Source: Meiothermus sp.
Lineage (GTDB): Bacteria; Deinococcota; Deinococci; Deinococcales; Thermaceae
Assembly: GCA_033762915.1 (NCBI GenBank)
Contig: JANRLD010000025.1
Coordinates: 12,488-76,487 of the forward strand
Reading direction: 5' to 3'
DNA length: 64,000 nt
Made by a program: the position numbers and the translations under genes. Below the pieces are notes generated by a model. It saw nothing but the letters and a program-made list of their open reading frames with translations, made no database searches and was not told the DNA's origin. Positions 23,013 through 41,841 of the stretch are shown here, piece after piece. Position 1 is the first letter of the stretch. Each line of letters starts with the position of its first letter.

Positions 23013-24287
23013 ATGCCGCTAAGGAACGCCTACCGTCCGCCGGGTGAGTCGGGCATGTGGGAGAGCTTTTTGCGCCGGCTCGAGGCCAGCCTCAGGCTGG
23101 CCAAGATTCACCCGGCCACGGTTCAGTACCTGATCCACCCCAAACGCATCGTGGGTCTGTCGATCCCCATCTTGATGGACGACGGGCGGGTGCAGCACTT
23201 CCCCGGCTTCCGGGTGATCCATAACATCGGTCGCGGCCCCGCGCTGGGTGGAGTGCGCTACCACCCCGACGTGACGCTGGGCCAGACCTGCGGGATGGCA
23301 GCCTGGATGACGCTCAAGGCGGCGGTCTACGGGCTCCCCTTCGGGGGCTCGGCGGGCGGGGTGGAGGTTGACCCGGCCAAGCTCTCTCGGCGCGAACTCG
23401 AGCGGCTCTCGCGGCGCTACATCACCGAACTGATCGAGCTGATAGGCCCCGACGAAGACATTCTGGCCCCCGACGTGGGCACCACCGAGCAGGTCATGGC
23501 CTGGTTTCAGGACACCTTCACCATGTCCAAGGGCGAGACCTCGCTGAGCGCGGTGACCGGCAAGCCCGACCCTGTGGGCGGCCTGGCCGGGCCGGACGAG
23601 GGCGGCGGGCAGGGCGCGATTTACGTGCTGGCCGACCTGGCCAAGCGCAATGGGTGGAGTCTCGAGGGCGCCTCGGTCGCCATCCAGGGTTTCGGGATGG
23701 TGGGCAGCGCCGCCGCCCGCTACGCCTCGAAAGAGGGGCTGAAGGTGGTGGCGGTGTCGACCAGCCGCAGCGGCGTGTACAACCCCAGCGGCCTGGACAT
23801 CCCCGCCCTCGAGGCCCATTACGCCCAACACAAGCACCTCGAGGGATTCGAAGGGGCCAGGCCCATTGGCAACTCCGAACTCCTGACCCTGGACGTGGAC
23901 TACCTGATCCCGGCGGCAGTCGAAGCCGTGGTTACTGTGGCCAACGCCGACGCCATTAAGGCCAGGGTGATCGTGGAGGGGGCCAACGGGGCAGTCATGC
24001 CCGAGGCCGAGGAGCGCCTCAAGCTGCGCGGCGTCGAGGTGATCCCCGACGTGCTGGCCAACGGCGGCGGGCTGGTCCTGAGCTACCTCGAGTGGGTGCA
24101 AGACCTCTCGATGCTCTTTTTCGACGAGCACGAGGTGCAAAACCGCCTGCGCGGCTTCATCCACCAGACCCTCGAGGCCGTCATCGAGCGCTCCAAGACC
24201 CTGGAGAACGACCTGCGGGCCGGGGCCTATGTGCTGGCGCTCGAGCGCATCAACGAGGCCAGCCGACTGCGGGGCGTGTACCCCTGA
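23013..24287 (+). CDS. gdhA: Glutamate dehydrogenase-like regulatory subunit (Thermus GdhA type)
   Basis: GDH fold, but GPALGG and GGSAGG replace the Lys-containing GPAKGG/GGGKGG of the downstream gene; ends RGVYP. Confidence 0.85.
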   Translation: MPLRNAYRPPGESGMWESFLRRLEASLRLAKIHPATVQYLIHPKRIVGLSIPILMDDGRVQHFPGFRVIHNIGRGPALGGVRYHPDVTLGQTCGMAAWMTLKAAVYGLPFGGSAGGVEVDPAKLSRRELERLSRRYITELIELIGPDEDILAPDVGTTEQVMAWFQDTFTMSKGETSLSAVTGKPDPVGGLAGPDEGGGQGAIYVLADLAKRNGWSLEGASVAIQGFGMVGSAAARYASKEGLKVVAVSTSRSGVYNPSGLDIPALEAHYAQHKHLEGFEGARPIGNSELLTLDVDYLIPAAVEAVVTVANADAIKARVIVEGANGAVMPEAEERLKLRGVEVIPDVLANGGGLVLSYLEWVQDLSMLFFDEHEVQNRLRGFIHQTLEAVIERSKTLENDLRAGAYVLALERINEASRLRGVYP

Positions 24288-24455
24288 CGGGACCAGGAAC
24301 GGGGATCAGCGAACCAGCGATCAGCAATGCGCATCTGTTGCCCTCTTCTCCTTCTGATCCGCTGGCCCGTTCCGTTTTCACCGGTCACCCATCCGACTTC
24401 CCGTCTTAAGTTCTGTGTTGCCTGAATCCTGTTCCCCATTTCGCGGAGCGAAACC

Positions 24456-25733
24456 ATGAAATCCGAACCCCTTTCCTACCTCAGCACCGAGAACATCGGC
24501 CCCTGGGAGATTTACCTGGCCCAAGTGGACCGGGTGACGCCCTACCTGGGCAAGCTGGCCTTCTGGGTCGAAGACCTCAAGCGGCCCAAGCGCATCCTGG
24601 TGGTGGATGTGCCCATCGCCCTGGACGACGGATCGGTGGCCCACTTCGAGGGCTACCGGGTGCACCACAACACCTTTCGCGGCCCGGCCAAGGGCGGCAT
24701 CCGCTACCACCAGGACGTGACCATGTCCGAGGTGATGGCGCTGTCGGCCTGGATGACCATCAAGAACGCCGCCGTGGGGCTCCCGTACGGCGGGGGCAAG
24801 GGCGGTATCCGGGTGAACCCGTCCAAGCTCAGCCCCGGCGAAGTAGAGCGCCTCACGCGGCGCTACACCTCCGAGATCGGGCTGATCATCGGCCCAGACA
24901 AGGACATCCCCGCGCCGGATATGGGCACCGGGCCAAGGGAAATGGCCTGGATGATGGACACCTACTCCATGAACGTGGGGCGCACCGCCTCGGGCGTGGT
25001 GACCGGAAAGCCGATTGCGGTGGGGGGCTCGCTGGGCCGCCAGGACGCCACCGGGCGGGGGGTCTTTGTGACCGCCGTGGCGGCCGCCGAAAAGATCGGG
25101 CTGCCGGTAGCCGGTAGCCGGGTGGTGGTGCAGGGGTTCGGCAATGTGGGCAACGCCTCGGCCCGCATTTTCCACGACGCCGGGGCCAGGGTGGTGGCCG
25201 TATCCGACGTGAGCGGAGCCATCCGCAACGACGGCGGGATAGACCCCTACAAGCTGGTTGATTATGTCCGGCAGATGGGCGGGGTGAAAGGCTACCCCGA
25301 GGCCGAGGCCATCCCAGCTAGTGAGTTGCTCATGGTGCCGTGCGAGTTCCTGGTTCCGGCGGCCCTCGAGAAGCAAATCACCGAGAAAAACGCCTGGAAA
25401 ATCGAGGCCAGGATCATTGCCGAGGGGGCCAACGGCCCTACCACCCCCGCCGCAGACGACATCTTCGCCGAGCGCGGCATCGTGGTGATCCCCGACGTGC
25501 TGGCCAACGCGGGCGGCGTCACGGTGAGCTACTTCGAGTGGGTGCAGGACTTTAATTCCTTCTTCTGGACCGAGCAAGAGATCAACGCCCGCCTCGAGCG
25601 GCTGATGCGCCAGAGCTTCGAGGCCATCTGGCAGGTGGCCCAGGACAAGAAGGTCTCGCTGCGAACCGCCGCCTACATCGTGGCAGCCACCCGGGTGCTG
25701 GAGGCGCGGGCCCTGCGAGGCCTTTACCCCTGA
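24456..25733 (+). CDS. gdhB: Glutamate dehydrogenase catalytic subunit
   Basis: GPAKGG, GGGKGG, PAPD, QGFGNVG, EGAN and SYFEW motifs; Thermus-like N-terminus MKSEPLSYL. Confidence 0.93.
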
Positions 25734-25830: not shown

Positions 25831-26514
25831 ATGGAACGATTGCTGGTAGTCGAAGACGACCCCCAACTGGCCCGCCTTATGACCTCGGTCCTCGAGCGGG
25901 AGGGTTACCGTGTTCAGTTGGCCACCAACGGGCTGGACGCCGTAGCGATGGGCCCACAGTCCGACCTGATGCTGCTGGACCTTGGCCTCCCGGGGCTTTC
26001 GGGCCTCGAGGTCATCCGCGACATGCGCTCAGGCGGCTGGAATATGCCCATCCTGGTGGTCAGCGCCCAGGGCTCGGAGGACATGCGGGTGCGGGCCCTG
26101 GAACTGGGGGCCGACGACTACTTGACCAAGCCGATGGGGATGCGCGAGATGGTGGCCCGGGTGCGGGCCCTAATCCGCCGTACCCGCCCGGCCCCCGAGA
26201 TTCAGGTGGGCGACCTCAAGATTCTGCTCAACCGCCGCCAGGTGTACAAGGGCCAGCAACTGCTGGACTTCTCGGCCACCGAGCTCGACCTGCTGATCAC
26301 CCTTGCGGCAAACCCCGGCGAGGTCTGGAGCCGCGAACGGCTCTTGAGCCGGGTCTGGGGCTCGGAGCGGGGAAGCGCGGTGGACGAGCGGGTGGTGGAC
26401 AGCTACGTGGCCCTGTTGCGGCGCAAGCTGGGCGACGACCCCAAGGCCCCCCGTTACGTGGAGACAGTCTTTGGGCAGGGCTACCGAATGGTCATCAGCC
26501 TGGGCGAGCTGTGA
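25831..26514 (+). CDS. OmpR/PhoB-family response regulator (no kinase in window)
   Basis: VVEDD, LLDLGLP, GADDYLTKP and C-terminal wHTH ETVFGQGY. Confidence 0.92.
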   Translation: MERLLVVEDDPQLARLMTSVLEREGYRVQLATNGLDAVAMGPQSDLMLLDLGLPGLSGLEVIRDMRSGGWNMPILVVSAQGSEDMRVRALELGADDYLTKPMGMREMVARVRALIRRTRPAPEIQVGDLKILLNRRQVYKGQQLLDFSATELDLLITLAANPGEVWSRERLLSRVWGSERGSAVDERVVDSYVALLRRKLGDDPKAPRYVETVFGQGYRMVISLGEL

Positions 26515-26779: not shown

Positions 26780-27292
26780 ATGAAGTGGAGACAGCTTTGG
26801 ATCATTGGTCTCAGCCTGGTGCTGGCCCTGGCATTTGCGCAGACCAGGGGGGCAGTGAAGCTCGACCTTCAGGCCTACCGGGTGCTGAGCGTGCAGGAAA
26901 ACGGCAGGTCCGTTGAGAAGCTGGAGGAGGCCCTCGAGGTACGCCCCGGCCAACTCATCGAGTACCGCCTGGCCGCCCAGAACACCAGCCAGACCGCCCT
27001 GCGCCAGGTCAGCCTGGTCATCCCGATTCCCCGCACCACCGCCTACCAGGCCCTGAGTGCGGCTCCCCTGCGGCTTGGCCAGAGCCTGGTCGCGCCTCAG
27101 TTTAGTTTTGACGGTGGAAGCGTCTACGGCTTCCCGCCGCTAAAGCGCAAAGTAACTGTGATGGAAAACGGCAAGGAGGTTCAGCGCGAGGTTGAGGTGA
27201 AGCCCGAAGAGTACACCCATGTTCGCTGGGTTCTGCCGCAGATGGCCACCCAGGAAAACGTCGTCTTGACGCTGCGGGCCACGGTTCGCTAA
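26780..27292 (+). CDS. Small secreted single DUF11-like domain protein (putative chaperone)
   Basis: Signal peptide; VRPGQLIEYRLAAQN...YTHVRW...LTLRATVR*; GAGGAGG RBS. Confidence 0.8.
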   Translation: MKWRQLWIIGLSLVLALAFAQTRGAVKLDLQAYRVLSVQENGRSVEKLEEALEVRPGQLIEYRLAAQNTSQTALRQVSLVIPIPRTTAYQALSAAPLRLGQSLVAPQFSFDGGSVYGFPPLKRKVTVMENGKEVQREVEVKPEEYTHVRWVLPQMATQENVVLTLRATVR

Positions 27293-27343: not shown

Positions 27344-30115
27344 ATGAAAAGAACCCTAAGTCTGTTGGTCGGCGCGGTGGCGCTTCTGGGCGTAGCCTTC
27401 GCCCAGCAAACCCCCGCCGGAACCAACATCTCCAACCAGGCCTCGGCCACCTATATCGACTCGGCCGGTCAGAACCAGAGCACCACTTCCAACCAAGTGT
27501 TGACCGTGGTGCAGCAGGTTTACAGCTTCACCATCACCCCCAACTCGGCCAGCACCAGCGAGCCCACCGGCGCCGCCGGCTTCGCCCAGAGCCGCAGCGC
27601 CCTTCCCGGTGCGCGCGTCTACTTCCCCTACACGGTCAACAATACAGGCAACGGCCCTGATACCATCAACCTGACCAGTGTACTCGGTACCGCCGGCGGC
27701 ACCACCCCCGTTCGCTTCGTGCTCCAGACCCCCACCATCTACCGCGACACCAACTGTAACGGCTCGGTGGACGCCGGTGAGTCGGTGATCTCCTCGGTGG
27801 CCCTCACCCAAAACGTCGGGGCACTGGCCGCAACCTCCTTGGCCTGCGTGATCATCGAGACCACCATCCCCAGCAGCGCCAATAACAACGAGGTCGGCAA
27901 CATCAACCTCTCGGGGATCTCGGCCGGCAACAACTCGGTGACCGACACCAACAACTGGTCGCGGGCCATCGCCACCACCTCCGCCGCGCTGGACATCAAC
28001 AAGAGCGCCAGCCCCAGCAACACGGCTTCGGCGGGCGGCACCATCTCCTACACCATCACCGGCCAGAATCGCGGCGGCAGCGCGGCCTCCGGCCTGACCA
28101 CCATCCCCACCGGCCTGGGCAGCATCCCGGTTGCCAGCAGCACCGGCATCCTGATCTGGGACATCGTGCCCACTGGCCTGACCCTGACCGGCGCCCCCAG
28201 CGGCTCCTCGGGCGCGGGCACCGTCAACATCGTCTACTCGAGCGACGGCACCACCTGGACCTCGACCGCCCCGACCTTCGCCACCTGGGCCGGCGACGGC
28301 ACCCGCCGCGTGGGCATGTGGATCACCGGCTCGGGCGCTTTCTTCCCCCAGGGGGCCTCGTACACCTTTAGCTTCACCACCAACGTGCCCGCAGGCGCGG
28401 CCTCGGGTACCACGTACACCAACACTGCCAACCTGCAGTTCAACAACGGCGCCGACGTCGGTCCGGTCGCCTCGAACAGCACCTCCAACACCGTCGGCAC
28501 CACCTTCGGCGTGGCCCTTGGCCCCAACGGTACCGCCACCGCTGCGGGCAACGGCGCGGTCGGCTCGGCCGACTCCCAGACCATCGCCTCGGCTTTCAGT
28601 GGCCAGACGGTGACCTTCACCCAGACCCTGCAGAACACCGGCAATGCCTCTGACAGCTTCAACCTGTCCCTGGGCACCGGCGCGACCGCCCCCAACCTGG
28701 CCCCGCCCAGCGGCTGGTCCTGCCAGATCACCCAGATTGACGGCACCCCCATCAACACCGCCGTCGGGCCTTTTGCTGCCAACGCCACCTTCAACTTCCA
28801 GGTGCGCTGCGCCATCCCCGCCAGCTACACCACCGCCACCGCGGTTAGCTTGAACGTGATCGCCACTTCGGTCGGCAACTCTGGCACCAGCGACCCCACC
28901 GCCGACACGGTCAGCGCGGTCAGCCTGGGCTACGCAGTCGACCTCGCCACCCGCGGCAACACCTCCAGGCCCGAGACCGCGGCCAACGACAACCCCGCCG
29001 GCCAGACCACCAACCCCGCAACCACCGTCAGCTTCCCGCTGGACGTGCGCAACAACGGCGAGAACACTGACACCTACCAGCTCTCGGCCACCATCCCCTC
29101 TGGCTGGTCGGTGCAGTTCATCAACGATGCCAACAACAACGGCGTAGCCGACTCCGGCGAGGCCGTGGTCAACAACACCGGCCTGATGGCCAAGGACGCT
29201 GTCCGTAGCGTGATCGCGGTGGTCACGGTGCCGGCCGGCACCAGCCCCGGCAGCAACAGCCTGACCTTTACCACCACCAGCGCCACCCTGGGCACGGTGA
29301 GCAACGCCGTCTCTACCACCATCACCGTCAACGAGGTCCGGGCCTTCGTATTCGACCCCGACCGCAGCGGTACCGTGACCAGCCCCGGCACCATCGTCTA
29401 CACCCATAACCTGCGCAACAACGGCAACGCCAGCGCAACCGTGGCGATCCCCGCGCCCACCTTCCTCAACACCTCCCGCGGCTGGACCTACCAGTACTCC
29501 ACCGACGGCGGCACCACCTGGACCAGCACCGTCTCGGGCTTGGTCCTGGCCGCCAACGCCTCGGCCACCCTGCAGGTGCGGGTGATCGTGCCCGCCGGCG
29601 AGGCCATCGGGGTGAGCGAGACCGCCCAGATCACCGCCACCGCCACCTACGCCAGCAGTGCCACCGCAGCCCAGACCGTCAACGACACCACCACCATCGT
29701 GGCCGGCGACCTGACCCTGGCCAAGACCGGCATCAGCTACGTGGGCAGCTCCGCCACCGTGCGCTCCGCCACCGCCGCCACCGCACTGCCCGGCGACCAG
29801 ATCCTCTACACGGTGGTCGCGACCAACAACGGCGTGGGCAATCTGACCACCGTCAAGATCGCCGACCCGCTGCCCAGCTTCACCGACTTCGTCTCGGTTA
29901 GCGCCACTACCACCATCTCGGGCGGTACCGTGGTCTACTCCACCGACGGCAACAACTGGACCACCACTGCCCCGACTACCCTCTCGGCAGGTCAGTCCAT
30001 CTACGTAGCCGTCAACACCGCCGGCACCGCTGGCGGCGCGGGCAGCATCGACGCCAGCGACCTGATGGCTCCTGGCCGCACCATCACCATCACCTTCCGA
30101 GTGCAAGTCCGCTAA
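27344..30115 (+). CDS. Secreted multi-Ig/DUF11 protein (putative major fibre subunit)
   Basis: Signal peptide; Thr/Ser/Asn-rich tandem beta-sandwich repeats (N.GN..D motifs); GGAGG RBS; followed by hairpins. Confidence 0.85.
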   Translation: MKRTLSLLVGAVALLGVAFAQQTPAGTNISNQASATYIDSAGQNQSTTSNQVLTVVQQVYSFTITPNSASTSEPTGAAGFAQSRSALPGARVYFPYTVNNTGNGPDTINLTSVLGTAGGTTPVRFVLQTPTIYRDTNCNGSVDAGESVISSVALTQNVGALAATSLACVIIETTIPSSANNNEVGNINLSGISAGNNSVTDTNNWSRAIATTSAALDINKSASPSNTASAGGTISYTITGQNRGGSAASGLTTIPTGLGSIPVASSTGILIWDIVPTGLTLTGAPSGSSGAGTVNIVYSSDGTTWTSTAPTFATWAGDGTRRVGMWITGSGAFFPQGASYTFSFTTNVPAGAASGTTYTNTANLQFNNGADVGPVASNSTSNTVGTTFGVALGPNGTATAAGNGAVGSADSQTIASAFSGQTVTFTQTLQNTGNASDSFNLSLGTGATAPNLAPPSGWSCQITQIDGTPINTAVGPFAANATFNFQVRCAIPASYTTATAVSLNVIATSVGNSGTSDPTADTVSAVSLGYAVDLATRGNTSRPETAANDNPAGQTTNPATTVSFPLDVRNNGENTDTYQLSATIPSGWSVQFINDANNNGVADSGEAVVNNTGLMAKDAVRSVIAVVTVPAGTSPGSNSLTFTTTSATLGTVSNAVSTTITVNEVRAFVFDPDRSGTVTSPGTIVYTHNLRNNGNASATVAIPAPTFLNTSRGWTYQYSTDGGTTWTSTVSGLVLAANASATLQVRVIVPAGEAIGVSETAQITATATYASSATAAQTVNDTTTIVAGDLTLAKTGISYVGSSATVRSATAATALPGDQILYTVVATNNGVGNLTTVKIADPLPSFTDFVSVSATTTISGGTVVYSTDGNNWTTTAPTTLSAGQSIYVAVNTAGTAGGAGSIDASDLMAPGRTITITFRVQVR

Positions 30116-30277: not shown

Positions 30278-33022
30278 GTGAGCGTTTTGACACCCGACAA
30301 CCCCAATGCGCCCACTTCCCTCGGGGCCCGCGCACAACATCGGACTTTCCTTTTCCCGCTGGCCCTTTTGCTGAGCTTCCTGGCCTGTTTTTGGCCCTCG
30401 GCCCTAGCCCAGAGCGCCCTGGCCGGCACCATCATCTCCAACCAGGCCCAAGTCTCCTTCGCCGAGTCTACCCAGCCCTACTTCTCCAACGTGGTGGAGA
30501 CCCTGGTTCAGGCGGTCTGCGCGCCGACCATCACCCCCAACGGAACCCAGGGCAGCCCGGCCCAGCGGGCGGTGGTTTCGGCGGGCGGTTTCGCCTACTT
30601 CCCCTACCTGCTGCGCAATGCCGGCAACCAGCGCAGCACTTTCGCGCTGAGCTCGGCCCAGAACGCCGCCACCTGGGCCCCCCGTTGGGTCCGGTTGTAC
30701 CTAGATCAAAACGAAGACTCGAGGCTCGACCCGGGGGAGCCCCAGGTCGCGAGCCTGTCCCTTGATGTGGGGGAGCAGCGCCGGCTGGTGATGGAGGTTG
30801 CCCTACCCGCCAACGCCACCGGCGACCTGCTGGTCACCCCCACTGCCAGCTGCGTGACCGGCGAGCGCGACGACGACAACTTCAGCCAGATCAGCGTGGG
30901 AACCGGGCCCTCGCTCAACCTCACCAAGTCCACCAGCCGGACCACCCTCGACACCAACCAGGAAACCACCTTCGGGCTCCTGGTGGCCAACCTGGGCAGC
31001 ACGCGGACGGGCGGGCCGGTCTCCGTCACCGACTGGCTCAACACCCCCGAACTGGCCGGGCTAAGCATTGTGCCCGGCTCGGCCGAGGCCACCAAGGGAC
31101 GCCTGGAGTACAGCGCCGACGGGACCACCTGGAGTAGCCTCGAAGGCACCCAGGTCCTCGGGGTGCGCCTGGTGCTCGATGGCCTGGAGGCCGGCGAGCA
31201 GGCAGTCTTCAGCTTCCGCATGCGCCTGGGCGAGGGTAGCTCGAACGGCCTCCGGCGTAACCTGGCCACCGCCGAGGGTCCGGGCGGGCCAGCGGTGGCC
31301 GCCGTCGAGCTGACGGTGGCCCCACGCTTCGCCCACCGGTTGGGGCCGCTGGGCCGGCCCGAGGCCAGCGGTGCCCAGGACCGCCAGAGCGGAACCGCCC
31401 GTGTCGGGCAGAGCTACTGCTTCTCACACAGCCTGATTAACCTGGGCAACGCCCCCGACCGCTACACCCTCGAGCTCGGCGTGCTGCCCCCAGGGATAAC
31501 CGCCAGCTTCCGCCAGGGCAGCGGCCCGCTGGCCCAACCGATCCTGCTGGGCCAGGGCGAACGCAGTGACTTCCAACTCTGCCTAGGCGGCCTCGATCAG
31601 CAGACTCCCAGCTTCGAGGTCACCCTCAACGCGGTCTCCCAGACCACCGGGGCGGTCGACCCCACCTACGACATACTGGGTGTCACCTACGACCCGGCCA
31701 GCGTGCGGCTGCTCAAGAGCACCGACCGGGCCTCGGCGATGCCGGGAGAGTCGGTCAACTACACCCTGCAAATCAGCAACCCCTTCCCGGTCGCGATGAC
31801 CAACCTGCGTGTCAGGGACCAGCTCGACGAGAGGCTGGAGTTCGTCGAAGCCTCTTCAGGCGGCAGCTTCGAACCGGCCAGCCGCGAGGTGGTCTGGACG
31901 GTGGGCAGCCTGGGGGTCGGCCAGACCCTCACCCTGAGCCTGCGGGTGCGGGTGGCCTCCACCACGAACGACGGCCAGATCCCCAACCGCTTCAGTCTCC
32001 GGGCCGATCAGTTCGACGACACCGCCACCTCCAACACGGTCAGTCTGCCTATCCTCACCAGCAGCATCCAGCTGCTCAAGAGGGTAACCCCTGCTCAGGC
32101 AGTGGTGGGCGACACCCTCACCTTCACGCTGACCCTACAGAACACCGGCAAGACCGACCTGGTCATCGAGGTGGTTGACACCCCCGGCAAAGGCCTGCGC
32201 TACGTGGAGCAGAGCGCCCAGCCCGCCGCCTCAGCCCAGCGCGGAGAGGGCCTGGTGTGGTCGGGCCTCGAGCTACCCGCCGGGGCCACCCGCAGCCTGA
32301 GCTACAAGATGCGGGTGTTGGCAGGGGCCCCGGAGCTGCTGGAGAACCGCGCGGTGGCCACTGGGGTCAACACCCAGGGGGTGGCGGTGGCGGCGGCCTC
32401 GGCGGCGGCCTCGGTCAAGCTGGACCGGGCGGTGTTCACGCCCATCAACATTCTGAGCGGCAGGGTCTTCCTCGATTCCGACCGCGATGGGCGCTATACG
32501 GCTGGTCTGGACATCCCGCTACCAGGAGCCAGGCTGGTGCTGTCCAACGGGATGCAAACCCTCAGCGACAAGGACGGGCGCTACGCCTTTCGGGAGCTGC
32601 GGGGCGGGGCCTGGGAGATCTTCCTCGACCCGGCCTCAGCCCCCTTCAAGCCGCTCCCGCACCCCGAGCAGTTAGGTGAAGGCTACCGCCACAGGGTCAC
32701 GGTCAACGGCCTGACCAACTCCGACTTCCCCCTCGAGCGCCCCCTGGGCCAGGCGGTGGTGCAGCGCGAGACCACCCTCGAGTTCGGCCCGCTTAAGGTC
32801 TACAAGCGCCTGATCGCCCTGCCGGCCGGGTTGCGGGTGGTCTTGGAGGTCAACAGCAGCGAGCCCATGAACGACCTCACCGTCTCCGACCCGGTGCCCG
32901 GCGGTGGGCTTCGGGAGTTCAAATTTGACAAGCTGGAAGGCCCACAGACCGTAACCTACGACTTGCCCATAACGCCCGGGTTCTACCTAACCGACCCGCA
33001 GGCCAGGTGGCGATACCCATGA
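30278..33022 (+). CDS. Secreted DUF11 + SdrD-B-like protein (putative base/adaptor subunit)
   Basis: N-terminal half paralogous to 27344..30115; DUF11 repeats; LSGRVFLDSDRDG...LPGARL..SDKDGRYAF (SdrD-B-like). Confidence 0.8.
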   Translation: MSVLTPDNPNAPTSLGARAQHRTFLFPLALLLSFLACFWPSALAQSALAGTIISNQAQVSFAESTQPYFSNVVETLVQAVCAPTITPNGTQGSPAQRAVVSAGGFAYFPYLLRNAGNQRSTFALSSAQNAATWAPRWVRLYLDQNEDSRLDPGEPQVASLSLDVGEQRRLVMEVALPANATGDLLVTPTASCVTGERDDDNFSQISVGTGPSLNLTKSTSRTTLDTNQETTFGLLVANLGSTRTGGPVSVTDWLNTPELAGLSIVPGSAEATKGRLEYSADGTTWSSLEGTQVLGVRLVLDGLEAGEQAVFSFRMRLGEGSSNGLRRNLATAEGPGGPAVAAVELTVAPRFAHRLGPLGRPEASGAQDRQSGTARVGQSYCFSHSLINLGNAPDRYTLELGVLPPGITASFRQGSGPLAQPILLGQGERSDFQLCLGGLDQQTPSFEVTLNAVSQTTGAVDPTYDILGVTYDPASVRLLKSTDRASAMPGESVNYTLQISNPFPVAMTNLRVRDQLDERLEFVEASSGGSFEPASREVVWTVGSLGVGQTLTLSLRVRVASTTNDGQIPNRFSLRADQFDDTATSNTVSLPILTSSIQLLKRVTPAQAVVGDTLTFTLTLQNTGKTDLVIEVVDTPGKGLRYVEQSAQPAASAQRGEGLVWSGLELPAGATRSLSYKMRVLAGAPELLENRAVATGVNTQGVAVAAASAAASVKLDRAVFTPINILSGRVFLDSDRDGRYTAGLDIPLPGARLVLSNGMQTLSDKDGRYAFRELRGGAWEIFLDPASAPFKPLPHPEQLGEGYRHRVTVNGLTNSDFPLERPLGQAVVQRETTLEFGPLKVYKRLIALPAGLRVVLEVNSSEPMNDLTVSDPVPGGGLREFKFDKLEGPQTVTYDLPITPGFYLTDPQARWRYP

Positions 33023-36000
33023 AACCAGGAACAGGGAACAGGGAACAGGGAACAGGGAGGAGAAGCTCTCGCGGTCTCTCTCTCCTGGTTCCTCTCCTTT
33101 CTTTCCTCGCCCTCCTGATGTTCGGCAGCGCGCTCGCGCAAGTCCGTACCGAACTCAAGGGGATCGTGCCCGGCAGTGAGCTGCGCTGGGAGATCACCGA
33201 ACTGCGGGCCAGCATCGTGGTCACCAAGCCGACCATTCTGAACCTGCAGATCTACTCCCCGGGCTTCGACCCCAAGGACTACCGCAGCGCCTTACAGGGC
33301 AAAAGCGAACTGGGCGATGAGCGCTACGATAAGGGCAAGGGGCCGATGCGCGCCAGCTTCGCCCTCAGCCGCGACGGGCGGGTGCTCGAGAACCGGGGCT
33401 ACGGGGTGGAGCCGCACCGCTGGGTGCTGTTCTTCCGGGGACGGGTGGAACCGGGGGTGTACACGATTGCCAGCAGCCTCAAGGGGCTGGGCAAGAACGC
33501 CTTCCTCTACCGCATCCAGACCAGCGTCCCCGAATCCGCCGAGCTGCTTGTGGATCCCACCCTTCAGCTCTACGACGTGCGCCGGAGCAGCGCGGTCTCG
33601 ATCGGCACCATCCGTGGGCCGAACTGGGTGGAGCCCTTCACCCTCGAGGTGCTGCCGGGGGTGGGGCCGTTTAGGGTGGGCATCTACGACGAGGACGGCC
33701 CAAGCGAGATGCTGGGGCGGGTGCGGCTGCCCGGCCAGCAGGTGGTGCCGCGCCAGGTTGCCGGCGACCGACAGTGGAGCTACTTCAATGTAGCGACGCC
33801 CGGCATCTACCGCTTCGGCTTCGCGCAGGCCCCCACCTCCAGGCAGTACTCCAACACCATCGGGTTCCAGGTGAATGCCTGCATGCAGGTGCGCGGCGAC
33901 CGCTTCGCGGTGCTTCCACCCAAGCCGGTTACGGCCAGTGTGGTGAACCAAGCGGGGCAGCGGCTCGAGTTCGCCCCCACGATCACCGGCGAGCAGATCC
34001 GCGAGGTCACGCTGCCCCCGCTGCCCGACGGCTACACCCTGCTGCGCATCGAGACCGAGGGCGGCGAGCCGCTGGCGGCCAACAAAGCCCGGCTGGGCTG
34101 CGCGGGCGGAAGCGTGCGCTTCGTGGTCGCGCTGCCCAAGGTGGCCGAGACGCCGGTCTCGCCGGAGCCCAGAGAGCCCGCCCTCACCGACCCCACGCCC
34201 GAGCCCGGCCAGCCCGAGATGGTGGCCCCCCCGGCCCCGGAGCCCATCGCGGTGGCTCCGCTCGAGCCGCTGGCTCCGCAGCCTGAGCCACAACCACAAC
34301 CCCAGCCTGAGCCACAACCACAACCCCAGCCTGAGCCACAACCACAACCCCAGCCTGAGCCACAACCACAACCCCAACCACAACCCCAGCCCCAGCCTGA
34401 ACCCCAGCCCCAGCCCGAGCCGCAACCACAACCCCAACCGCAACCCCAGGTCGAGGTGGTCGCCCCCCCGGTCAAGAAAGGTCGCCTCGAGCTGACGGCC
34501 CGCCTGGTGCTTCCCACGGGTGAGCAGAGCGCCGAGATTGGGGTGCAGGTGGGCGACCAGACCGTCCGGCTCGAGGGCGGGGCGGCCTCGCTCGAGCTGA
34601 CCCCCGGCAGCCTGACCCTGACTCCCCAAGTGCAGGGCGCGACAGTGGTCGGCCCCAGCACCGCCGAGGTGCTGGCAGACCAGACCGCCAGGGCCGAGTT
34701 TAGGGTCTACCCCAGCGTCCAGCTGACCCTGCACGCCGACAAAACCGTGCTGAAGATCGGCGAAGAGGCGGTACTGACCGCAACCGCCACAACCGCCTAC
34801 GCTCGCCTGCTGCCCGCCAACCTCCAACTTGCCCTGCCTGCCTGCCTGGAGCCGCTCGAGACCCCCCGCCTAACCACCCCGATCTCCGCCGCCCGGCAGG
34901 GGGTGCTGCGTGTCCCGGTCCGTGCGGTCTGCCGGGGTGAGTTTCCTGTCCCGGCGACACTAACCCCCTGGGGCCAAGGGGCCAGTGTGAGCCTTAAGGT
35001 GCTGCAGCCACTGAGGTTTAGCCTGACCAAACAGGCCCTGACCCCCGCAGTCGCGGTAGGGGGCCAGGCAGTCTACCGGCTGACGGTCCAGAACATCAGC
35101 GACGAGGCCGGGCCGGTGACCCTGCGCGACCCCCTGGCCGTGGGCCTGCTGGGTGAGCCTCTCGAGCAAAGCCTGGTCCTCGAGCCGGGCCAGGAGCGCA
35201 GCATCGAGCTCAGCGCCCTGGTCGGCCCCGAGGCCCCGGCCCGCATCCAAAACCGGGCCCAGTTGGTGAACGCTGCCGGCGAGGTGCTGGCTGAGTCTGA
35301 GGCCGGGGTCGAGGTGCTGCGACCGGCGGCCGTGCTGGGCCGCACACTGGACAAGCGCGTGGTGGTCCCCGGCGAGACGGTGGAGGTCGGGCTGACCGTG
35401 GGCAACGACGGGCAGGCCAACCTCGAGTACAGCCTGAGCGACACCATACCCGAGTGGCTCGAAGTCTCGAACCCCCCCAGCTTCAGCGGGCAGCTGGCCC
35501 CGGGCCAGCGCGTGACCCACCGCTACACTGCCACGGTGCGCTTCGGCTCGGGGGCCGAGGGACAGTTTGAGGCCCAACTGCGCTCCAACGGCGGCGACCC
35601 CACCGCCACCGACACCCTGCGGCGGGTGCTGGTACCCCTAAGCAAGCGGGCCACGCCCGAGCGGGTGGTGTTGGGGAACGACGCGGCCTTTGAAATCGAG
35701 TTCACCAACCCCACCGACCACCCTTTGAGCCTGGAGTTGATGGAAGCACCCGACCCCGATCTGGGGATGGATATCCCTGGGGAACTTCGGTACGAGCTGG
35801 CCCCCGGAGAGACACAGCGCTTGACCCTTCCGGCTAAGCCCAAGCGGGTGGGGCCCCTGGAGAACCAGGTCACGGCCTTCGTGGGCGGCGCCCCGGCCTC
35901 CTTTCCCACCAAGGCCACCCTCATGGTAATGCCGGTACTGGAGGTGCAGCGCTACTCCCTGGTAACCCTCGAGTTCAGCGCACAGGGGCAGGGCGAGCGA

Positions 36001-38925
36001 CTTCTTCTGACCCACCGGCCGCCCGAGACCGCCGGTTACGAGGCTGGCTCGGCCCGCCTGGACGGCCAGCCCATCCCCGACCCCCGGGCCGACGAGCAGG
36101 GCCGGCTCTACTTCGAGTTCGCGTTCCAGCCCAGGGGAGTCCTTACCTACAGCCTGCGCCACCGCGAGTCACTGCCAGCCCTCCAGCCGCCCACCCTGAC
36201 CCTGCGCGCCGGCGACCGCGAGGTGATGCTGCAGGGACAGGTCGGGTTCGGCGACCTGAACCGGGCCAAGCCGCTGGAAGTCAGCCGCCGCGACGGCTAC
36301 ATCCAGTCCCCCCTCCCCGGCACTATCTTCAGCGTGGATAAGGCCTCGGTCACAGTGGAGGCTCCCTTCGGCCTCGAGGTGCAGCTCCGCCTCAACGGAG
36401 AGCTGGTGGACAGCCGCAACCTGGGCCAGGGCATCTTCGACTCGACCAAGAACCTCCAGCGCCTGGAGTACTTCGGCCTGCCCCTGCGCCGCGGCCGCAA
36501 CCTGATCGAGGTCCAGACGGGCGCGGGATCCGACCGCGTGGAGGTCTTCCTGCCCGACCGACCGGTGCGCCTTGAGGCCCGCCCGGTGAGGGTACAGGCC
36601 GACGGGCGCACCCCGCTGGAGCTGGAATTGCGGGCGGTCGACGACAGCGGCCTGCCCTCGGGCTTCGGGCCGCTGACCCTTCAGAGCTCCCTCGAGCCCC
36701 TGGCTACCGACGCCTTCCCAGGCGAGTCGGGCTATCAGGTGCTGCTGCGCGACGGGCGGGCCACCCTCCTGCTCAGGCCCACCGCCACCCCCACCACCCT
36801 GCGCCTGCGCATGAGCTTCAACGACCTCAGCGCTACCCAGGAGTTCTTCGTGGGTGGCCGCCAGAGCAGCATCGGCCAGATTCAGGGCAGCGTGGGGCTG
36901 CAGTTGAGCGACGGCTGGCAGGGCTTCGGCTCCCTGCGCGGCTACCTCGAGACCCCCCTGGCCGGCGGAACCCTGCGGGCCGCCACTGACACCTCGGTGC
37001 GCTTCGAGAGCGGCCAGGCGGTGGTGGAAAACGGCCTGTCAGGCCAGACAACCCCCACCGGGCGTTTCCCGCTGACCGGCGCGGGCAATGAGGCCACCCA
37101 GCCCTTGACCTCGGCCGACCCCCTGGCCGTGCGCTACGACCAGGAGGCGTTCGGCATCGGCTATTACTCCGGGGCGCTGGCCCTGCCGGGGGTCAGCGAA
37201 CTCCCCCAGGTCACTGCATTGCGCGCAGAGAGCCGTGGCGAGCTCCAGTTGCTCGGCTTCGCTGGGGCCCTGCCGGTGACCAGTATCCGTCAGGAGATCG
37301 TGCCCGACGGCACCCGCCACTACCGCCTGGGCCAGCCCGCCCTGCCCGAGAGCGAGACCGTGATCGTGCGCACAGGGGCCTCCGAGCGGCAGCTCGAGCG
37401 CCTGCGCGACTACGTCCTGGACGCGCCCACCGGCATCCTCACGCTCTCCAGCCCGCTGTGGCCCAGCGGCCCGGACTTCCAGAATGTCCGGCTGATCATC
37501 ACCTACGCGCCGGAGAGCGCCAGCCGGGCCCCGGGCTACGGCATCGGGGTGCGCTACCGGGCCGGCGGGTTTAGCCTGGGGGCAGGCCTGGCACAGCTGC
37601 CCCTGGACAATCAGAGCCGCGACCTGCGCTACGGCCTCGAGGCCGCCTACCAGAGCCAGGACCTGAGCATCCGCCTTACCTACAGCCATGTCGCGCCAGG
37701 CACGCCGGGCAAGATGGGCTTAGATCTTGGCGGCAACTCCGACACCCTCGAGGGCAGCGCTAACCTGACCCTACAGAACCAGGTCCAAGGACAGGCCCGG
37801 GTGGCGGTCAGGCTCAGCCCCGACGATAAGCTCTCCCTCGAGCACCAGGCCTCGGACATTAACCAGAGCGGCCTGATCTACACCCGCCGGCTGAGCCCAG
37901 CGTTTAGCCTCGGCGGTGGCCTGGGGTACATCTGGGAGAGCGGCAACCTGGCCGCCCTGGCCCGCCTGGCCGCAACCGGGACCCCGCTCAACACCGAGCT
38001 GACCCACAGCCAGCCCTTGAGCCTCCAGGCTCCTGCCCAGACCCGCCTACGCAGCAACTATGCCCTCGACACCAACTTGAGCCTCGAGGCCGAGGCGGTG
38101 ACCACCTGGGGCATAGGAGTCAGCGGCGTGGTGGGGCTCAAGCAGAAGTTCGACGCCGCCAACCTCTCGCTTTCTTACCAGCTGCCTGGGGCTTCGGGCG
38201 AGGGCAACCGAGCCCGGTTCGGCCTCGAGACGCCCTTCAGCCTGAGCGACAGGCTGAGCCTTAATCTCAACGCCGGCTACGAGCAAAGCCTCAGCAGCGG
38301 CGATGCCCAGTCTGCCGCCGGGGCTGCTCTGCGCTACAAAGCCGACGACTTCAGCGCAACCCTCGGGGCCGAGGCCGCGATGGCCAGCGGGCGGCCCAAG
38401 GTGGTGCTGCGGGCGGGCGCGACTGGCCAGATCGACGACCAGCAGACCCTCTCGCTCGATACGACCTACCAGATCGTCCCCACTGCCGAGGGTCGGTTCA
38501 CCCTGTCGTACGCACTGCGCGGGCGGGACGTGAGCCTGCTTTCCTACCACCGCCTGCTGAGCGGCGGTGAGCCGGTGCTCGAGGGGGCGGTGGCCGCCAG
38601 CCTCCACCCCGACCCTCGCTTCCAGCTGCGCCCCACCGCGGCCTACCGCTTCAAGCCGCTGGACCAGGTGGGCAACACCTACCAGCTTGGCCTGGGGGCC
38701 AACTACTACCTCACCGACTGGCTGGGCCTGGGCGCGGGAGCCCACTACCAGTTCCAGCCCGGCCTCGGCCAAAGCGCCACAGCCTGGGGTCTCGAGGGCA
38801 GCCTTCGGGTGGCGGATGGGCTGTGGTTCAACGCCGGCTACACCTTCGGCGGCTTCGAGGGCCTGACCGGCGAGACCCGCGGCGGCTTCTACATCCGCCT
38901 AGACTTCTTCGGCGCGACCCGCTAG
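33019..38925 (+). CDS. Giant exported protein: Pro-rich linker, DUF11/Ig domains, C-terminal predicted outer-membrane beta-barrel
   Basis: ATGA overlap at 33019; signal peptide; PQ/PE tract; last ~500 aa are alternating G/aromatic strands ending GGFYIRLDFF. Confidence 0.8.
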   Translation: MKPGTGNREQGTGRRSSRGLSLLVPLLSFLALLMFGSALAQVRTELKGIVPGSELRWEITELRASIVVTKPTILNLQIYSPGFDPKDYRSALQGKSELGDERYDKGKGPMRASFALSRDGRVLENRGYGVEPHRWVLFFRGRVEPGVYTIASSLKGLGKNAFLYRIQTSVPESAELLVDPTLQLYDVRRSSAVSIGTIRGPNWVEPFTLEVLPGVGPFRVGIYDEDGPSEMLGRVRLPGQQVVPRQVAGDRQWSYFNVATPGIYRFGFAQAPTSRQYSNTIGFQVNACMQVRGDRFAVLPPKPVTASVVNQAGQRLEFAPTITGEQIREVTLPPLPDGYTLLRIETEGGEPLAANKARLGCAGGSVRFVVALPKVAETPVSPEPREPALTDPTPEPGQPEMVAPPAPEPIAVAPLEPLAPQPEPQPQPQPEPQPQPQPEPQPQPQPEPQPQPQPQPQPQPEPQPQPEPQPQPQPQPQVEVVAPPVKKGRLELTARLVLPTGEQSAEIGVQVGDQTVRLEGGAASLELTPGSLTLTPQVQGATVVGPSTAEVLADQTARAEFRVYPSVQLTLHADKTVLKIGEEAVLTATATTAYARLLPANLQLALPACLEPLETPRLTTPISAARQGVLRVPVRAVCRGEFPVPATLTPWGQGASVSLKVLQPLRFSLTKQALTPAVAVGGQAVYRLTVQNISDEAGPVTLRDPLAVGLLGEPLEQSLVLEPGQERSIELSALVGPEAPARIQNRAQLVNAAGEVLAESEAGVEVLRPAAVLGRTLDKRVVVPGETVEVGLTVGNDGQANLEYSLSDTIPEWLEVSNPPSFSGQLAPGQRVTHRYTATVRFGSGAEGQFEAQLRSNGGDPTATDTLRRVLVPLSKRATPERVVLGNDAAFEIEFTNPTDHPLSLELMEAPDPDLGMDIPGELRYELAPGETQRLTLPAKPKRVGPLENQVTAFVGGAPASFPTKATLMVMPVLEVQRYSLVTLEFSAQGQGERLLLTHRPPETAGYEAGSARLDGQPIPDPRADEQGRLYFEFAFQPRGVLTYSLRHRESLPALQPPTLTLRAGDREVMLQGQVGFGDLNRAKPLEVSRRDGYIQSPLPGTIFSVDKASVTVEAPFGLEVQLRLNGELVDSRNLGQGIFDSTKNLQRLEYFGLPLRRGRNLIEVQTGAGSDRVEVFLPDRPVRLEARPVRVQADGRTPLELELRAVDDSGLPSGFGPLTLQSSLEPLATDAFPGESGYQVLLRDGRATLLLRPTATPTTLRLRMSFNDLSATQEFFVGGRQSSIGQIQGSVGLQLSDGWQGFGSLRGYLETPLAGGTLRAATDTSVRFESGQAVVENGLSGQTTPTGRFPLTGAGNEATQPLTSADPLAVRYDQEAFGIGYYSGALALPGVSELPQVTALRAESRGELQLLGFAGALPVTSIRQEIVPDGTRHYRLGQPALPESETVIVRTGASERQLERLRDYVLDAPTGILTLSSPLWPSGPDFQNVRLIITYAPESASRAPGYGIGVRYRAGGFSLGAGLAQLPLDNQSRDLRYGLEAAYQSQDLSIRLTYSHVAPGTPGKMGLDLGGNSDTLEGSANLTLQNQVQGQARVAVRLSPDDKLSLEHQASDINQSGLIYTRRLSPAFSLGGGLGYIWESGNLAALARLAATGTPLNTELTHSQPLSLQAPAQTRLRSNYALDTNLSLEAEAVTTWGIGVSGVVGLKQKFDAANLSLSYQLPGASGEGNRARFGLETPFSLSDRLSLNLNAGYEQSLSSGDAQSAAGAALRYKADDFSATLGAEAAMASGRPKVVLRAGATGQIDDQQTLSLDTTYQIVPTAEGRFTLSYALRGRDVSLLSYHRLLSGGEPVLEGAVAASLHPDPRFQLRPTAAYRFKPLDQVGNTYQLGLGANYYLTDWLGLGAGAHYQFQPGLGQSATAWGLEGSLRVADGLWFNAGYTFGGFEGLTGETRGGFYIRLDFFGATR
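33028..33055 (+). repeat. Heptamer tandem repeat (GGAACAG)x4 inside the 5' end of the beta-barrel gene
   Basis: Read directly, 9 nt after the start of the ATG at 33019. Confidence 0.9.
34277..34449 (+). repeat. Coding tandem repeat encoding (PQ/PE)n
   Basis: CAGCCTGAGCCACAACCACAACCC units repeated. Confidence 0.9.
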
Positions 38926-38970: not shown

Positions 38971-41841
38971 ATGTACACACCCCTCACAAGGCAGGACTCA
39001 GGCCGGGCCCGCGCTCCCCTGGGCCTTCTCGTCATGGCGCTGCCCGCCCCCCTGACCAGAGTCTTCGCCCTCGCGTTGCTCCTCTGCAGCTTCGCTCAGG
39101 CCCAGCTCAGCTTCACCAACAGCACCACCGCCCAGACCCTAGCCAATGCCCTGGCCGGGCCTGGCGTCACAGTAGTGGCCAACTCCGCCACCCTCACCCG
39201 CGCCACCACCAACCAGAACAACACGGGCACCTTCAGCGGGGGCACCACCGGAGGCGCCGGCCCGGTGGTCGGGATCGGCTCAGGGGTGCTCCTCAACACC
39301 GGCAGCTTCGCCACCTCAGTGGCGGGGCCCAACAACCGCAAAGGCTCTTCGGCGGGCGGCAGCCAGCTCACCGACGCTGACCTGACCAGCTTGGCCGGGG
39401 CCACGGCCAACTACGACACCGTGTTGCTGACCTTCAGCGTAGTACCCAGCGGGCGCAGCCTCAACTTCCAGTACGTCTTCGGCAGCGAAGAGTACCCCGA
39501 GTATGTCTGCACCTCGTTCAACGACGCGATGGGGATCTTCGTGCGGGGCCCGGGCATCTCCGGGCCCTACGCCAACGGCGCGGTCAATGTGGCCACCCTG
39601 CCCAGCGGGGACCGGATTAGCATCAACAACATCAACGGCGGGCAGATCGGCTACCAGGGCGGGGCCACCGGGACCGGCTGTGTCCTGGGCAACAACGCCT
39701 ACTACGTCGACAACGGCGATCCCAACAACGCCACCCTGCCCAACTCGGCCCTGTTCACCAATACCCAGCTCGACGGCTTCACCCGGCCCCTGCGCAGCCG
39801 GGTCAGCGTGACCCCCGGCCAGACCTACGTCGTGAAGATCGCCATTGCCGACACCGGCGACGCGCAGTACGACTCCGCGCTGTTCATCGGGCTGATCTCG
39901 AGCCAGTCCGACTGGGGCGATGCCCCCTCCACCTACGGCACCAGCACCGCCACCAATGGCCCCCTGCACGACATCGACAGCCGGATCTTCATCGGCCCGA
40001 CCCAGCCCGACGTGGAGAACGACGGCCAACCCGGGGCGGGGGCCGACGGTGACAACCTCAACGGGACCAACGACGAGAACACCCTCACCACCTTCCCAAC
40101 CCTTACCTCGAGCACCCCCACCTACACCCTTAGCGCAATACCGTTGACCAACACCACTGGCCTACCCGCGACCCTGGCAGGATGGATCGACTTCAACCGC
40201 AACGGCCTGTTCGACGCCTCGGAGCGGGCCACCGTATCGGTGGCCAGCGGCGCCACCAGCGCCACTCTGACCTGGAGCGGGCTGAGCGGGCTTTCGATCG
40301 GGACCACCTACCTGCGCCTGCGCCTCTCCTCGGCGCTCGACTTCGTGGCCAACCCCCTCCCGACCGGCGGCTACGACGACGGCGAGGTGGAGGACTATGC
40401 ACTGAGTATCGTGTTCGGGGCGGTGGTCTCGGGCACCGTCTACAGCGACCTACAGCCCAACGGAACCCGCGACAGCGGCGAGAGCTGGAGTGGGGGCCCG
40501 ACCGTCTTCGTCAACCTGATCCAGGCCGGGACGGTGGTGCAGTCGGCCCAGGTGGCCAGCGGCGGCGGGGCCTACAGCTTCAGCGCGGTGCTACCCGGCA
40601 GCTATAGCCTGGTGCTGGGCGGCTCCATCGGCGCCACCACGCCCGCCTCGCCCGCTGGCTGGATGGCCATCAACCCCAGCCCTGCCCTCCTCAGCGTTAC
40701 GGTCACCGCAAGCAACATGCCCAACCAGAACTTCGGCCTGTTTAACGGCTATCGCCTCGCGGGCCTGGTTTTCCGAGACGACGGGCGGGGCGGCGGGACC
40801 GCCAACAACGCCCTGCAAGACGGCGGCGAGCCGGGCTTGGGGGGCGTCACCTTGACCGCCACCGCAGGCCCCAGCACCCGCTCGGCCGCGACCGACGCCA
40901 CCGGGGCCTACGACCTCTACATCCCCGCCAGCTTCTCCAGCGTAACCCTGGGCCACGCTCAGACCCCGGCCACCGGCCACAACAACGCCGGATCGGCCGT
41001 CACGCTGGCCTCGAGCTTCTCCGACCCCGCCGCGAGGCAGCGCAGCCTGGGCACCCTGGCCAACGGCTCGAGCTACTCCTACAACTTCGGGGTGGTATGG
41101 GCCTCGGAGCTCCGCCCCGACCAGAGCGGCCAGGCCACCAGCCCCGGCATCGCCACCTACCGCCACACCTTCCGCCCCGGCACCCTTGGCAGTCTCTCGC
41201 TCGCCGCCACCGGCGCACTGACCTACCGCATCCGCCGTGCCGCCGGCTGCACCGCCCTGGCCCCCTCCGACACCCTGCAGCCGCTGCCCCTCTCTGTGGT
41301 CGTCGACGCCGCCTGGCCCCGCGACCCCAATGGCCGTCTCAGCGCCTGCGAACTCGAGCTGCTGGTCCTGGTGCCCGCCGGACGGCCCAGCGGCGCGGTG
41401 GACATCGCCCAACTTACCAGCAGCCTGACCTGGGCCGGCAACGCGAGCGTGACGGAACAGCGCAACGTCATCGACACCACCACCGTCGTGGCCCAGGGCG
41501 CTCTCCGCCTTGAAAAGGCCGTCCGCAACGTCACCCAGAACGTCCCCGCCGCCGGCGCCTATACCACCAACGTTGCCGGGCGCCCCGGCGACACCCTCGA
41601 GTACTGCATCGCCTTTCGCAACCCCGGCGCCGCCGCCGTCAGCAGCGCCGTCCTCACCGACCCCATCCCCTTCTTCACCAACTACACCGCTTCCTCCCTC
41701 CGCCTCGGCGCCACCGCCCTCTCCGACGCCGCCGACGCCGACGCCGGCGAGCTGGTGAGCGGCCTCTACGTCCTGGTTCGCCTCGGCAACCTTACGGCAG
41801 GCCAGACCGGACAGGTCTGCTACCGCGTGACAGTGCGCTGA
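38971..41841 (+). CDS. Adhesin-like protein: choice-of-anchor-L-like + GEVED + SdrD-B + shared C-terminal module
   Basis: YVFGSEEYPEY..FND, IADTGD..YDSALF, DWGDAP..Y, WIDFNRNG and GEVEDY motifs; start may be ATG 39034. Confidence 0.8.
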   Translation: MYTPLTRQDSGRARAPLGLLVMALPAPLTRVFALALLLCSFAQAQLSFTNSTTAQTLANALAGPGVTVVANSATLTRATTNQNNTGTFSGGTTGGAGPVVGIGSGVLLNTGSFATSVAGPNNRKGSSAGGSQLTDADLTSLAGATANYDTVLLTFSVVPSGRSLNFQYVFGSEEYPEYVCTSFNDAMGIFVRGPGISGPYANGAVNVATLPSGDRISINNINGGQIGYQGGATGTGCVLGNNAYYVDNGDPNNATLPNSALFTNTQLDGFTRPLRSRVSVTPGQTYVVKIAIADTGDAQYDSALFIGLISSQSDWGDAPSTYGTSTATNGPLHDIDSRIFIGPTQPDVENDGQPGAGADGDNLNGTNDENTLTTFPTLTSSTPTYTLSAIPLTNTTGLPATLAGWIDFNRNGLFDASERATVSVASGATSATLTWSGLSGLSIGTTYLRLRLSSALDFVANPLPTGGYDDGEVEDYALSIVFGAVVSGTVYSDLQPNGTRDSGESWSGGPTVFVNLIQAGTVVQSAQVASGGGAYSFSAVLPGSYSLVLGGSIGATTPASPAGWMAINPSPALLSVTVTASNMPNQNFGLFNGYRLAGLVFRDDGRGGGTANNALQDGGEPGLGGVTLTATAGPSTRSAATDATGAYDLYIPASFSSVTLGHAQTPATGHNNAGSAVTLASSFSDPAARQRSLGTLANGSSYSYNFGVVWASELRPDQSGQATSPGIATYRHTFRPGTLGSLSLAATGALTYRIRRAAGCTALAPSDTLQPLPLSVVVDAAWPRDPNGRLSACELELLVLVPAGRPSGAVDIAQLTSSLTWAGNASVTEQRNVIDTTTVVAQGALRLEKAVRNVTQNVPAAGAYTTNVAGRPGDTLEYCIAFRNPGAAAVSSAVLTDPIPFFTNYTASSLRLGATALSDAADADAGELVSGLYVLVRLGNLTAGQTGQVCYRVTVR

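Follow-up and report, generated by a model that had tools for sequence, protein, structure and literature searches.

Can a single isopeptide-forming domain be divided between two neighbouring subunits of a bacterial surface fibre, so that one brings Lys and Asp and the other brings Asn? This question is raised by a run of genes in a stretch of 64,000 nucleotides from Meiothermus sp. (the window; contig JANRLD010000025.1 of assembly GCA_033762915.1), which encodes the putative shaft subunit p923, its neighbour p914 and further surface proteins with DUF11 domains. The original prediction held that the C-terminal domains of p923 and of three large proteins (p956, p1320 and p1997) keep the Lys and the Asp of such a domain, that the Asn lies at the N-termini of p923 and p914, and that a covalently linked, sortase-independent and heat-stable fibre results. 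Our analysis indicates that the locus probably encodes a surface fibre of a naturally split CLIPPER (DUF11, CnaA-like) isopeptide domain with an autocatalytic Lys-Asn lock. Complementation of strands in trans is well supported. The covalent bond we infer from the homologous domains, the conserved triad and the existence of a paralogue, p185, that has lost the Asp.

The premise that DUF11 repeats carry a K...D...N pattern agrees with PDB entry 9IFR, in which a Lys-Asp-Asn isopeptide is resolved; in the paper describing it, DUF11 is renamed CLIPPER and classed as CnaA-like (PMC12617251). The intact DUF11 repeats of the window show the same three residues, K10, D44 and N103 being invariant in 10/10. 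A profile of these repeats matches 9IFR_A (E 3.9e-8) in register at the K, D and N columns, and it also matches the pilin-like entries 4HSQ and 4HSS; a phmmer search of the PDB with a single intact repeat gave no match. To judge from these alignments, the intact repeats are true CLIPPER domains.

The end points of Pfam, hidden Markov model (HMM) and hhalign alignments agree that the C-terminal domains are CLIPPER domains without the Asn-bearing strands. The Lys motifs are located where they had been claimed, namely LAKT in p923 (K794), LEKA in p956, LSKV in p1320 and LEKQ in p1997, and so are the Asp motifs, ADPLP in p923 (D841) and TDPIP in the other three. Positions 29705-30115, to which the original prediction referred, code for residues 788-923 of p923 plus the stop codon and lie inside this C-terminal acceptor. 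The C-terminus of p923 scores 32.9 bits against Pfam DUF11 (PF01345, cut-off 24.6), where it covers profile positions 7-81 of 114 only, and 50.8 bits against TIGR01451; the chain ends with ...TFRVQVR directly before the stop codon, as p956 ends with VCYRVTVR. With an HMM of 132 positions built from 12 complete repeats of the window, the C-termini of p956, p1320 and p1997 correspond to positions 19-93 and end one residue before the stop, and a genome-wide scan found DUF11 domains cut at position 93 in these three proteins only. The end of the p923 acceptor is misplaced by HMMER because of an insertion; an hhalign comparison of 19 shaft acceptors with 10 intact window domains (probability 98%, E 2.7e-14) gives the same structural position as in the three adhesins, with residue 149 of 150 falling on residue 93 of 133. 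A complete CLIPPER sandwich with its last strands in one chain is accordingly not what the acceptors contain. Searching the PDB with the acceptor by phmmer yielded weak matches to XRCC4 only (E at least 0.14), which were taken as noise.

The strands absent from the acceptors are found at the N-termini of the proteins encoded from 27344 and 30278, p923 and p914, which hhalign and a donor profile indicate to provide precisely these strands. The motif ISNQA stands where it had been reported, in p923 (N31) and in p914 (N55), 8-10 residues past the predicted signal-peptide cut. Donor residues 6-33 align to residues 98-124 of the intact domain, with N11 on the invariant N103 (hhalign, E 8.4e-4). As the acceptor ends at 93 and the donor starts at 98, the halves adjoin without overlap, with a four-residue loop between them. 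Moreover, among 33,194 six-frame open reading frames of at least 80 amino acids in the 5.38-Mb genome, the donor profile matches p923 (E 1.8e-25) and p914 (E 1.3e-6) only; the placement of the motifs exceeds chance. The Lys/Asp/Asn triad of a CLIPPER domain is here found in trans only, K794 and D841 being contributed by the acceptor and N31 or N55 by the donor.

The donor is also the best-conserved part of p923. Among 12 Meiothermus orthologues, its mean pairwise identity (residues 21-62) is 0.90 compared with 0.64 for the mature protein; it ranks second among 861 windows of p923, and the top eight windows all overlap it. This bears on the possibility that no complementation takes place at all, the C-termini being stable seven-stranded immunoglobulin (Ig) variants and the N-terminal motif a part of the first domain, with the likeness to a split domain arising from gene borders inside repeat arrays. 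DUF11 proteins are rich in repeats, and the acceptor alone (29663-30112) is modelled confidently by AlphaFold2 (AF2), with a predicted local distance difference test score (pLDDT) of 90.2, as a stable variant would be. We nevertheless consider this explanation highly improbable, given an identical cut point in two divergent acceptor classes and in the examined families of the order, a donor that is confined to this operon and surpasses the rest of p923 in conservation, and a complex prediction that passes its controls.

This prediction combined the acceptor (150 amino acids, with a 19-row alignment) and the donor (50 amino acids) in three runs with contact-level output and was accompanied by three controls. 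The interaction prediction score from aligned errors (ipSAE) of acceptor and donor was 0.86, 0.87 and 0.87 as opposed to 0.00 for the best of the controls, the runs had at least 92% of their contacts in common, and the pLDDT of the partner was at least 83. In the model, donor residues 13-18 run antiparallel to acceptor residues 61-68 (LTTVKIAD), and the second donor strand is placed against the Lys strand. Lys794 is predicted to contact Ala33, Ser49 and Val52, and Asp841 to contact Ala33 and Ser34. Acceptor residues 149-150 and the first three residues of the donor lie inside the listed interface, albeit in a listing that does not name their individual partners, which fits a single domain that is cut at the loop between them. 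An incomplete Ig fold filled by the N-terminal extension of the next subunit is what the predicted complex depicts.

Conservation of the triad extends well beyond this genome. In 11/11 genus orthologues examined, the same strand is the last of the chain (ending ...F[RK]V.VQ before the stop codon) and the Lys, the Asp and the N-terminal Asn are kept. Shaft proteins from several genera all have the Asn in the donor and the Asp in the acceptor (19/19 each). Throughout all fetched loci, the Asn is present in all 33 unique shaft donors and all 26 unique base donors, two misses of the donor search pattern being register errors that were settled by eye. The Asp motif occurs in 44/44 acceptors other than p185, and the Lys was found by search pattern in 43 of these 44 and seen by eye in the last.

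The paralogue p185, encoded just upstream of p923, differs in this very respect. It contains a truncated domain like that of the acceptors and ends with ...LR..VR before the stop codon; it corresponds to positions 7-59 of the window DUF11 HMM and matches the acceptor profile at 6e-8. At the place of the Asp motif it reads LVIPIP, the Asp is absent in 14/14 unique members of its family, which occur in 14 of the fetched loci, and K, R or E stands at the position of the Lys. This loss of the Asp together with a variable Lys suggests that the residues of the triad are selected together for chemistry and not for folding. An acceptor unable to catalyse the bond would hold a donor reversibly, and p185 is read here as a candidate non-covalent cap or chaperone for donor strands. 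Its atlas neighbours are small DUF11-like proteins of Deinococcota, plus Pseudomonadota (by features; structure template modelling (TM) scores 0.7-0.79), and a comparison of p185 with the PDB gave no match. TTHA1873 of Thermus thermophilus (PDB 7WRK, 7WWN) was considered as a relative of p185 and dropped, as a sequence link was not detectable; a literature search yielded no paper on this protein. The same protein is a structural neighbour of the acceptor model (Z 7.6-7.7 over 100-103 residues).

Do the halves, once joined, become covalently linked? Donor-strand complementation could equally proceed without a covalent bond, with Lys, Asp and Asn only forming hydrogen bonds or serving folding, and all evidence for complementation fits such an arrangement just as well. 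Oligomers of the Clostridium perfringens protein BsaA are stable in sodium dodecyl sulfate (SDS) even without their bond (bioRxiv 10.1101/2024.11.04.621531). What speaks for chemistry is the triad itself, which is complete in 19 aligned pairs, 44 true acceptors and 59 donors, and its joint decay in the p185 family. We regard a purely non-covalent fibre as unlikely, though it deserves serious attention.

Several further points weigh against a covalently locked split domain. According to PMC12617251, the bond is absent from some DUF11 domains. In the predicted complex Asn31 belongs to the interface set, yet the contact listed for both Lys794 and Asp841 among the 25 of lowest error is Ala33, two residues after Asn31. 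The prediction may merely recall the intact CLIPPER fold. Of 157 solved complexes 116 attain the ipSAE mark, as do 2 of 215 mismatched pairs, and this calibration holds only roughly here because our own alignments were used. The acceptor model superimposes on 9IFR with a Z of 7.6 (root-mean-square deviation 2.1 Å over 91 residues, range 18-109 in the numbering of the entry; 29% identity, the highest in the list), which is below the tool's bar of 8 and tied with unrelated Ig-like folds; the Gram-positive pilins BcpA, RrgB and those of Streptococcus sanguinis tie with 9IFR as well. In both acceptor classes the Lys strand is followed by 13-15 inserted residues, which are absent from intact domains, and the acceptor profile had no match in the PDB at E<=0.1. 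The hhalign probability of the donor against the intact domain is only 23.8%, a weak score that is expected because the alignment spans 28 columns. Lastly, subunits of 900 amino acids would have to pass the outer membrane.

Taken together, the split itself, the complementary halves, the phylum-wide triad, the predicted interface and the lack of a sortase agree with the original prediction; the Lys-Asn bond would be consistent with them. As to the sortase, PF04203 was not found in the host genome, which is 95.5% complete, in a search that was positive in control genomes (3/14), and no LPXTG-type sorting signal is present at the C-termini of the fibre proteins, whose chains end at the domain strand. 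This agrees with the proposed independence of sortase.

Since p923 holds donor and acceptor in one chain, the halves might also meet in cis, with the N-terminal hairpin folding into the C-terminal domain of its own chain, or in closed dimers, with two chains swapping hairpins; either would give a closed particle. The complex prediction, made on isolated pieces, is blind to the difference between cis and trans. The same conserved operon, in contrast, encodes three acceptor-only proteins and one donor-only protein, and such unpaired halves make sense in trans only. We give closed assemblies very little credence.

For a fibre assembled in trans, the following course can be envisaged. The acceptor would consist of approximately the first seven strands of the domain at the C-terminus of a subunit; it would contain the catalytic Asp, and its first strand would bear the Lys. 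The mature N-terminus of the following subunit would be the donor, which supplies the last two strands and with them the Asn. A tip protein (p956, p1320 or p1997), having an acceptor only, would take the donor of p923, and p923, having both halves, would polymerise head to tail. As p914 has a donor only, it would terminate the chain at its cell-proximal end, beside the giant barrel protein p1972. Completion of the beta-sandwich by the donor hairpin would bring Lys794, Asp841 and Asn31 or Asn55 into one core as in an intact domain, whereupon the Lys-Asn isopeptide may form autocatalytically with loss of NH3. The proteins would thus probably be joined head to tail, and perhaps covalently bonded, without an assembly enzyme. 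The order of the subunits and the roles of p185 and p1972 are proposed ones; heat stability of the fibre and its use as a ligation tool would be plausible.

The genes in question form a co-oriented run on the + strand, comprising a response regulator, p185, p923, p914, p1972, p956, p1320 and p1997 (Table 1), and signal-peptide-like N-termini are present on all surface proteins from p185 to p1997.

Table 1. Positions of the features of the gene run within the window.
Feature	Position	Strand	Description	Basis
OmpR-type response regulator	25831-26514	+		
p185	26780-27292	+	Small secreted protein with one acceptor-like truncated DUF11 domain	Window DUF11 HMM, acceptor profile
p923	27344-30115	+	923 amino acids; putative shaft subunit; signal peptide, donor at the N-terminus, Ig-like domains in between, acceptor at the C-terminus	
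p923 donor	27404-27529	+	Residues 21-62, equivalent to the last two CLIPPER strands; Asn31 codon 27434-27436	
p923 acceptor	29663-30115	+	Residues 774-923; Lys794 29723-29725, Asp841 29864-29866	
p914	30278-33022	+	914 amino acids; donor only, putative terminator or base; Asn55 30440-30442; three complete DUF11 repeats	
p1972	33007-38925	+	Giant protein; signal peptide, linker of Pro/Gln/Glu repeats, DUF11-like domains, predicted C-terminal beta-barrel (~37537-38904)	
p956	38971-41841	+	Tip-type adhesin with choice-of-anchor L and GEVED heads; acceptor-only C-terminus ~41482-41838, K849, D897	
p1320	42063-46025	+	Tip-type adhesin with three complete DUF11 repeats; acceptor-only C-terminus ~45666-46022, K1213, D1261	
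p1997	46491-52484	+	Tip-type adhesin with DUF11 array; acceptor-only C-terminus ~52128-52481, K1891, D1938	

The three tip-type adhesins have a common C-terminal stalk of ~500 amino acids that is 58-64% identical, and their N-terminal heads differ: p956 has choice-of-anchor L and GEVED domains, p1320 and p1997 have DUF11 arrays. The tips thus look like modular, exchangeable parts. With the truncated last domain counted, the array of p1997 comprises seven DUF11 stretches according to Pfam and eight repeats according to NCBIfam. The acceptors of the tips (41500-41560, 45690-45750 and 52150-52210; also in loci L019-L027) share a conserved K.VRN[VIF][TS] after the Lys, which resembles an N-x-S/T sequon. 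The Asn of this motif, four residues past the Lys, was discarded as the partner of a bond, as it is too close on one strand for CnaA geometry.

At the presumed base of the fibre, the end of p914 overlaps the start of p1972 by 4-16 nucleotides, according to which start codon is assumed. The last domain of p914 (32700-33022) has a Lys strand and a DP.P Asp motif, followed by a conserved TDPxxRWRYP in place of the Asn strand; a Lys-Asp bond in cis or a signal for docking to the barrel is conceivable. p1972 matches Pfam Porin_4 at 2.2e-7, and AF2 models its last 520 amino acids (pLDDT 74) with a beta meander at residues 59-514 of this segment (~460 residues, ~30 strands). Foldseek matches of this barrel are LptD, TonB-dependent receptors and FimD/PapC at TM 0.2-0.4, i.e., generic large barrels only, and p1972 is presumed to be an outer-membrane platform. 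The Pro/Gln/Glu-rich linker of p1972 at 34279-34449 shows periods of 6, 18 and 24 nucleotides, with a hexamer in ~26 copies.

Full-length orthologues of p923 with 55-61% identity are present in 20 of 24 genus genomes, and relatives occur in other families of the order, where the order of shaft, base, giant barrel protein and acceptor-only adhesin recurs as well. When the phylum is sampled evenly, matches at E<=1e-10, some of which are paralogues or partial, occur in 116 of 151 genomes; by family, these amount to 38/48 (f1), 71/82 (f3), 3/8 (f4) and 3/12 (f2). With such a distribution, the system may be a major feature of the envelope of Thermus, Meiothermus and Deinococcus. Two further giant barrel proteins that end with LRLDWLFDER.FG.R are encoded on other contigs (C88:35202-45337 and C39:94485-99221), the former being preceded by a base-like protein of 1293 amino acids ending ITDPDLFWDEVTP. 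Both loci are without an N-terminal donor and without a shaft gene, and the base-plus-barrel pair may therefore be the ancestral module.

Regarding the surroundings of the locus, the G+C content of the window is ~67%, and a scan of the locus for promoters and terminators gave nothing above shuffled sequence. Directly upstream of the response regulator, at 23013-25733, lie two tandem paralogous Glu/Leu/Phe/Val dehydrogenase genes (424 and 425 amino acids). The host assembly, 5.38 Mb in 119 contigs, is large in comparison with the 2.4-3.9 Mb of 24 other sampled genus genomes, with an estimated contamination of only 0.51%.

If the bond forms, the locus would provide a covalent, enzyme-free route to long adhesive fibres in diderm bacteria that differs from those of chaperone-usher, type IV, type V and sortase pili. 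Moreover, 'donor-strand exchange and lock', so far shown for one Gram-positive matrix protein, would then reach an adhesin domain that is very widespread. A Tag/Catcher pair taken from a thermophile as it occurs in nature would also be of practical use. Going further, we tentatively entertain, at somewhat less than even chances, an undescribed pilus class of double-membraned bacteria present in most of Deinococcota, which would combine a split-CLIPPER click and a Lys-Asn lock with p185 as reversible chaperone or cap, a barrel of ~30 strands as platform and a thermostable Meiothermus Tag/Catcher.

How does this arrangement relate to known systems? The closest relative by domain family is the CLIPPER domain of 9IFR, in which the triad and all strands belong to one chain and the bond is intramolecular (PMC12617251); at the locus, in contrast, a second polypeptide brings the Asn together with the last two strands. 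In that paper the word 'split' is absent, and 'intermolecular' is used as general background. A description of a naturally split DUF11/CLIPPER domain, or of such a fibre in diderm bacteria, was not found in the literature, most subscription journals and supplements lying outside the search.

The chaperone-usher pili (Fim, Pap) likewise consist of incomplete Ig-like subunits filled by the N-terminal extension of the next one, with tips, a shaft and a terminator without a free groove. These pili are, however, non-covalent and donate one strand, whereas two strands are donated here. Neither p185 nor p1972 matches a Pfam family of PapD-like chaperones or ushers at E<=0.01, and the barrel of p1972 compares with FimD/PapC at TM 0.27-0.30, among LptD and TonB-dependent receptors. 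The thread of Sulfolobus acidocaldarius, an adhesive fibre of a thermophile, shares donor-strand complementation and a proposed intermolecular isopeptide. This thread differs in that the N-terminal amine of Asp24 is linked to Asn57 of subunit n+2, in having no Pfam domain and in belonging to an archaeon (PMC9715654).

The mechanism is reminiscent of BsaA, a member of the TasA family, in which exchanged donor strands are secured by a lock between Asn and Lys that uses a catalytic Glu, as mutants confirm (bioRxiv 10.1101/2024.11.04.621531). There, too, an N-terminal strand bearing the Asn enters the next subunit, which as acceptor contributes the Lys and an acidic residue, and the lock is reported as autocatalytic and sortase-free, giving heat-resistant oligomers. 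The likeness is one of mechanism and not of family: BsaA has a TasA-like fold with N35-E56-K74, a Gram-positive host and secretion linked to SipW and type IV pili, whereas the domain of the locus is CnaA-like and uses an Asp, the host is diderm and a giant barrel protein is encoded alongside, and no TasA-family Pfam entry is among the matches of p185, p923, p914 and p1972.

Finally, the predicted pair resembles SpyTag/SpyCatcher, where a peptide with one reactive residue rebuilds a split isopeptide domain and locks it covalently. That pair was engineered from CnaB2 and forms a Lys-Asp bond, whereas the split described here is natural, CnaA-like and would form a putative Lys-Asn bond with a catalytic Asp. 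In SpyTag/SpyCatcher the catalytic residue is a Glu. Auto-crosslinking fibres are reportedly also the subject of a 2026 paper on sporesilk. Given BsaA and the archaeal threads, the mechanism is not new in kind.

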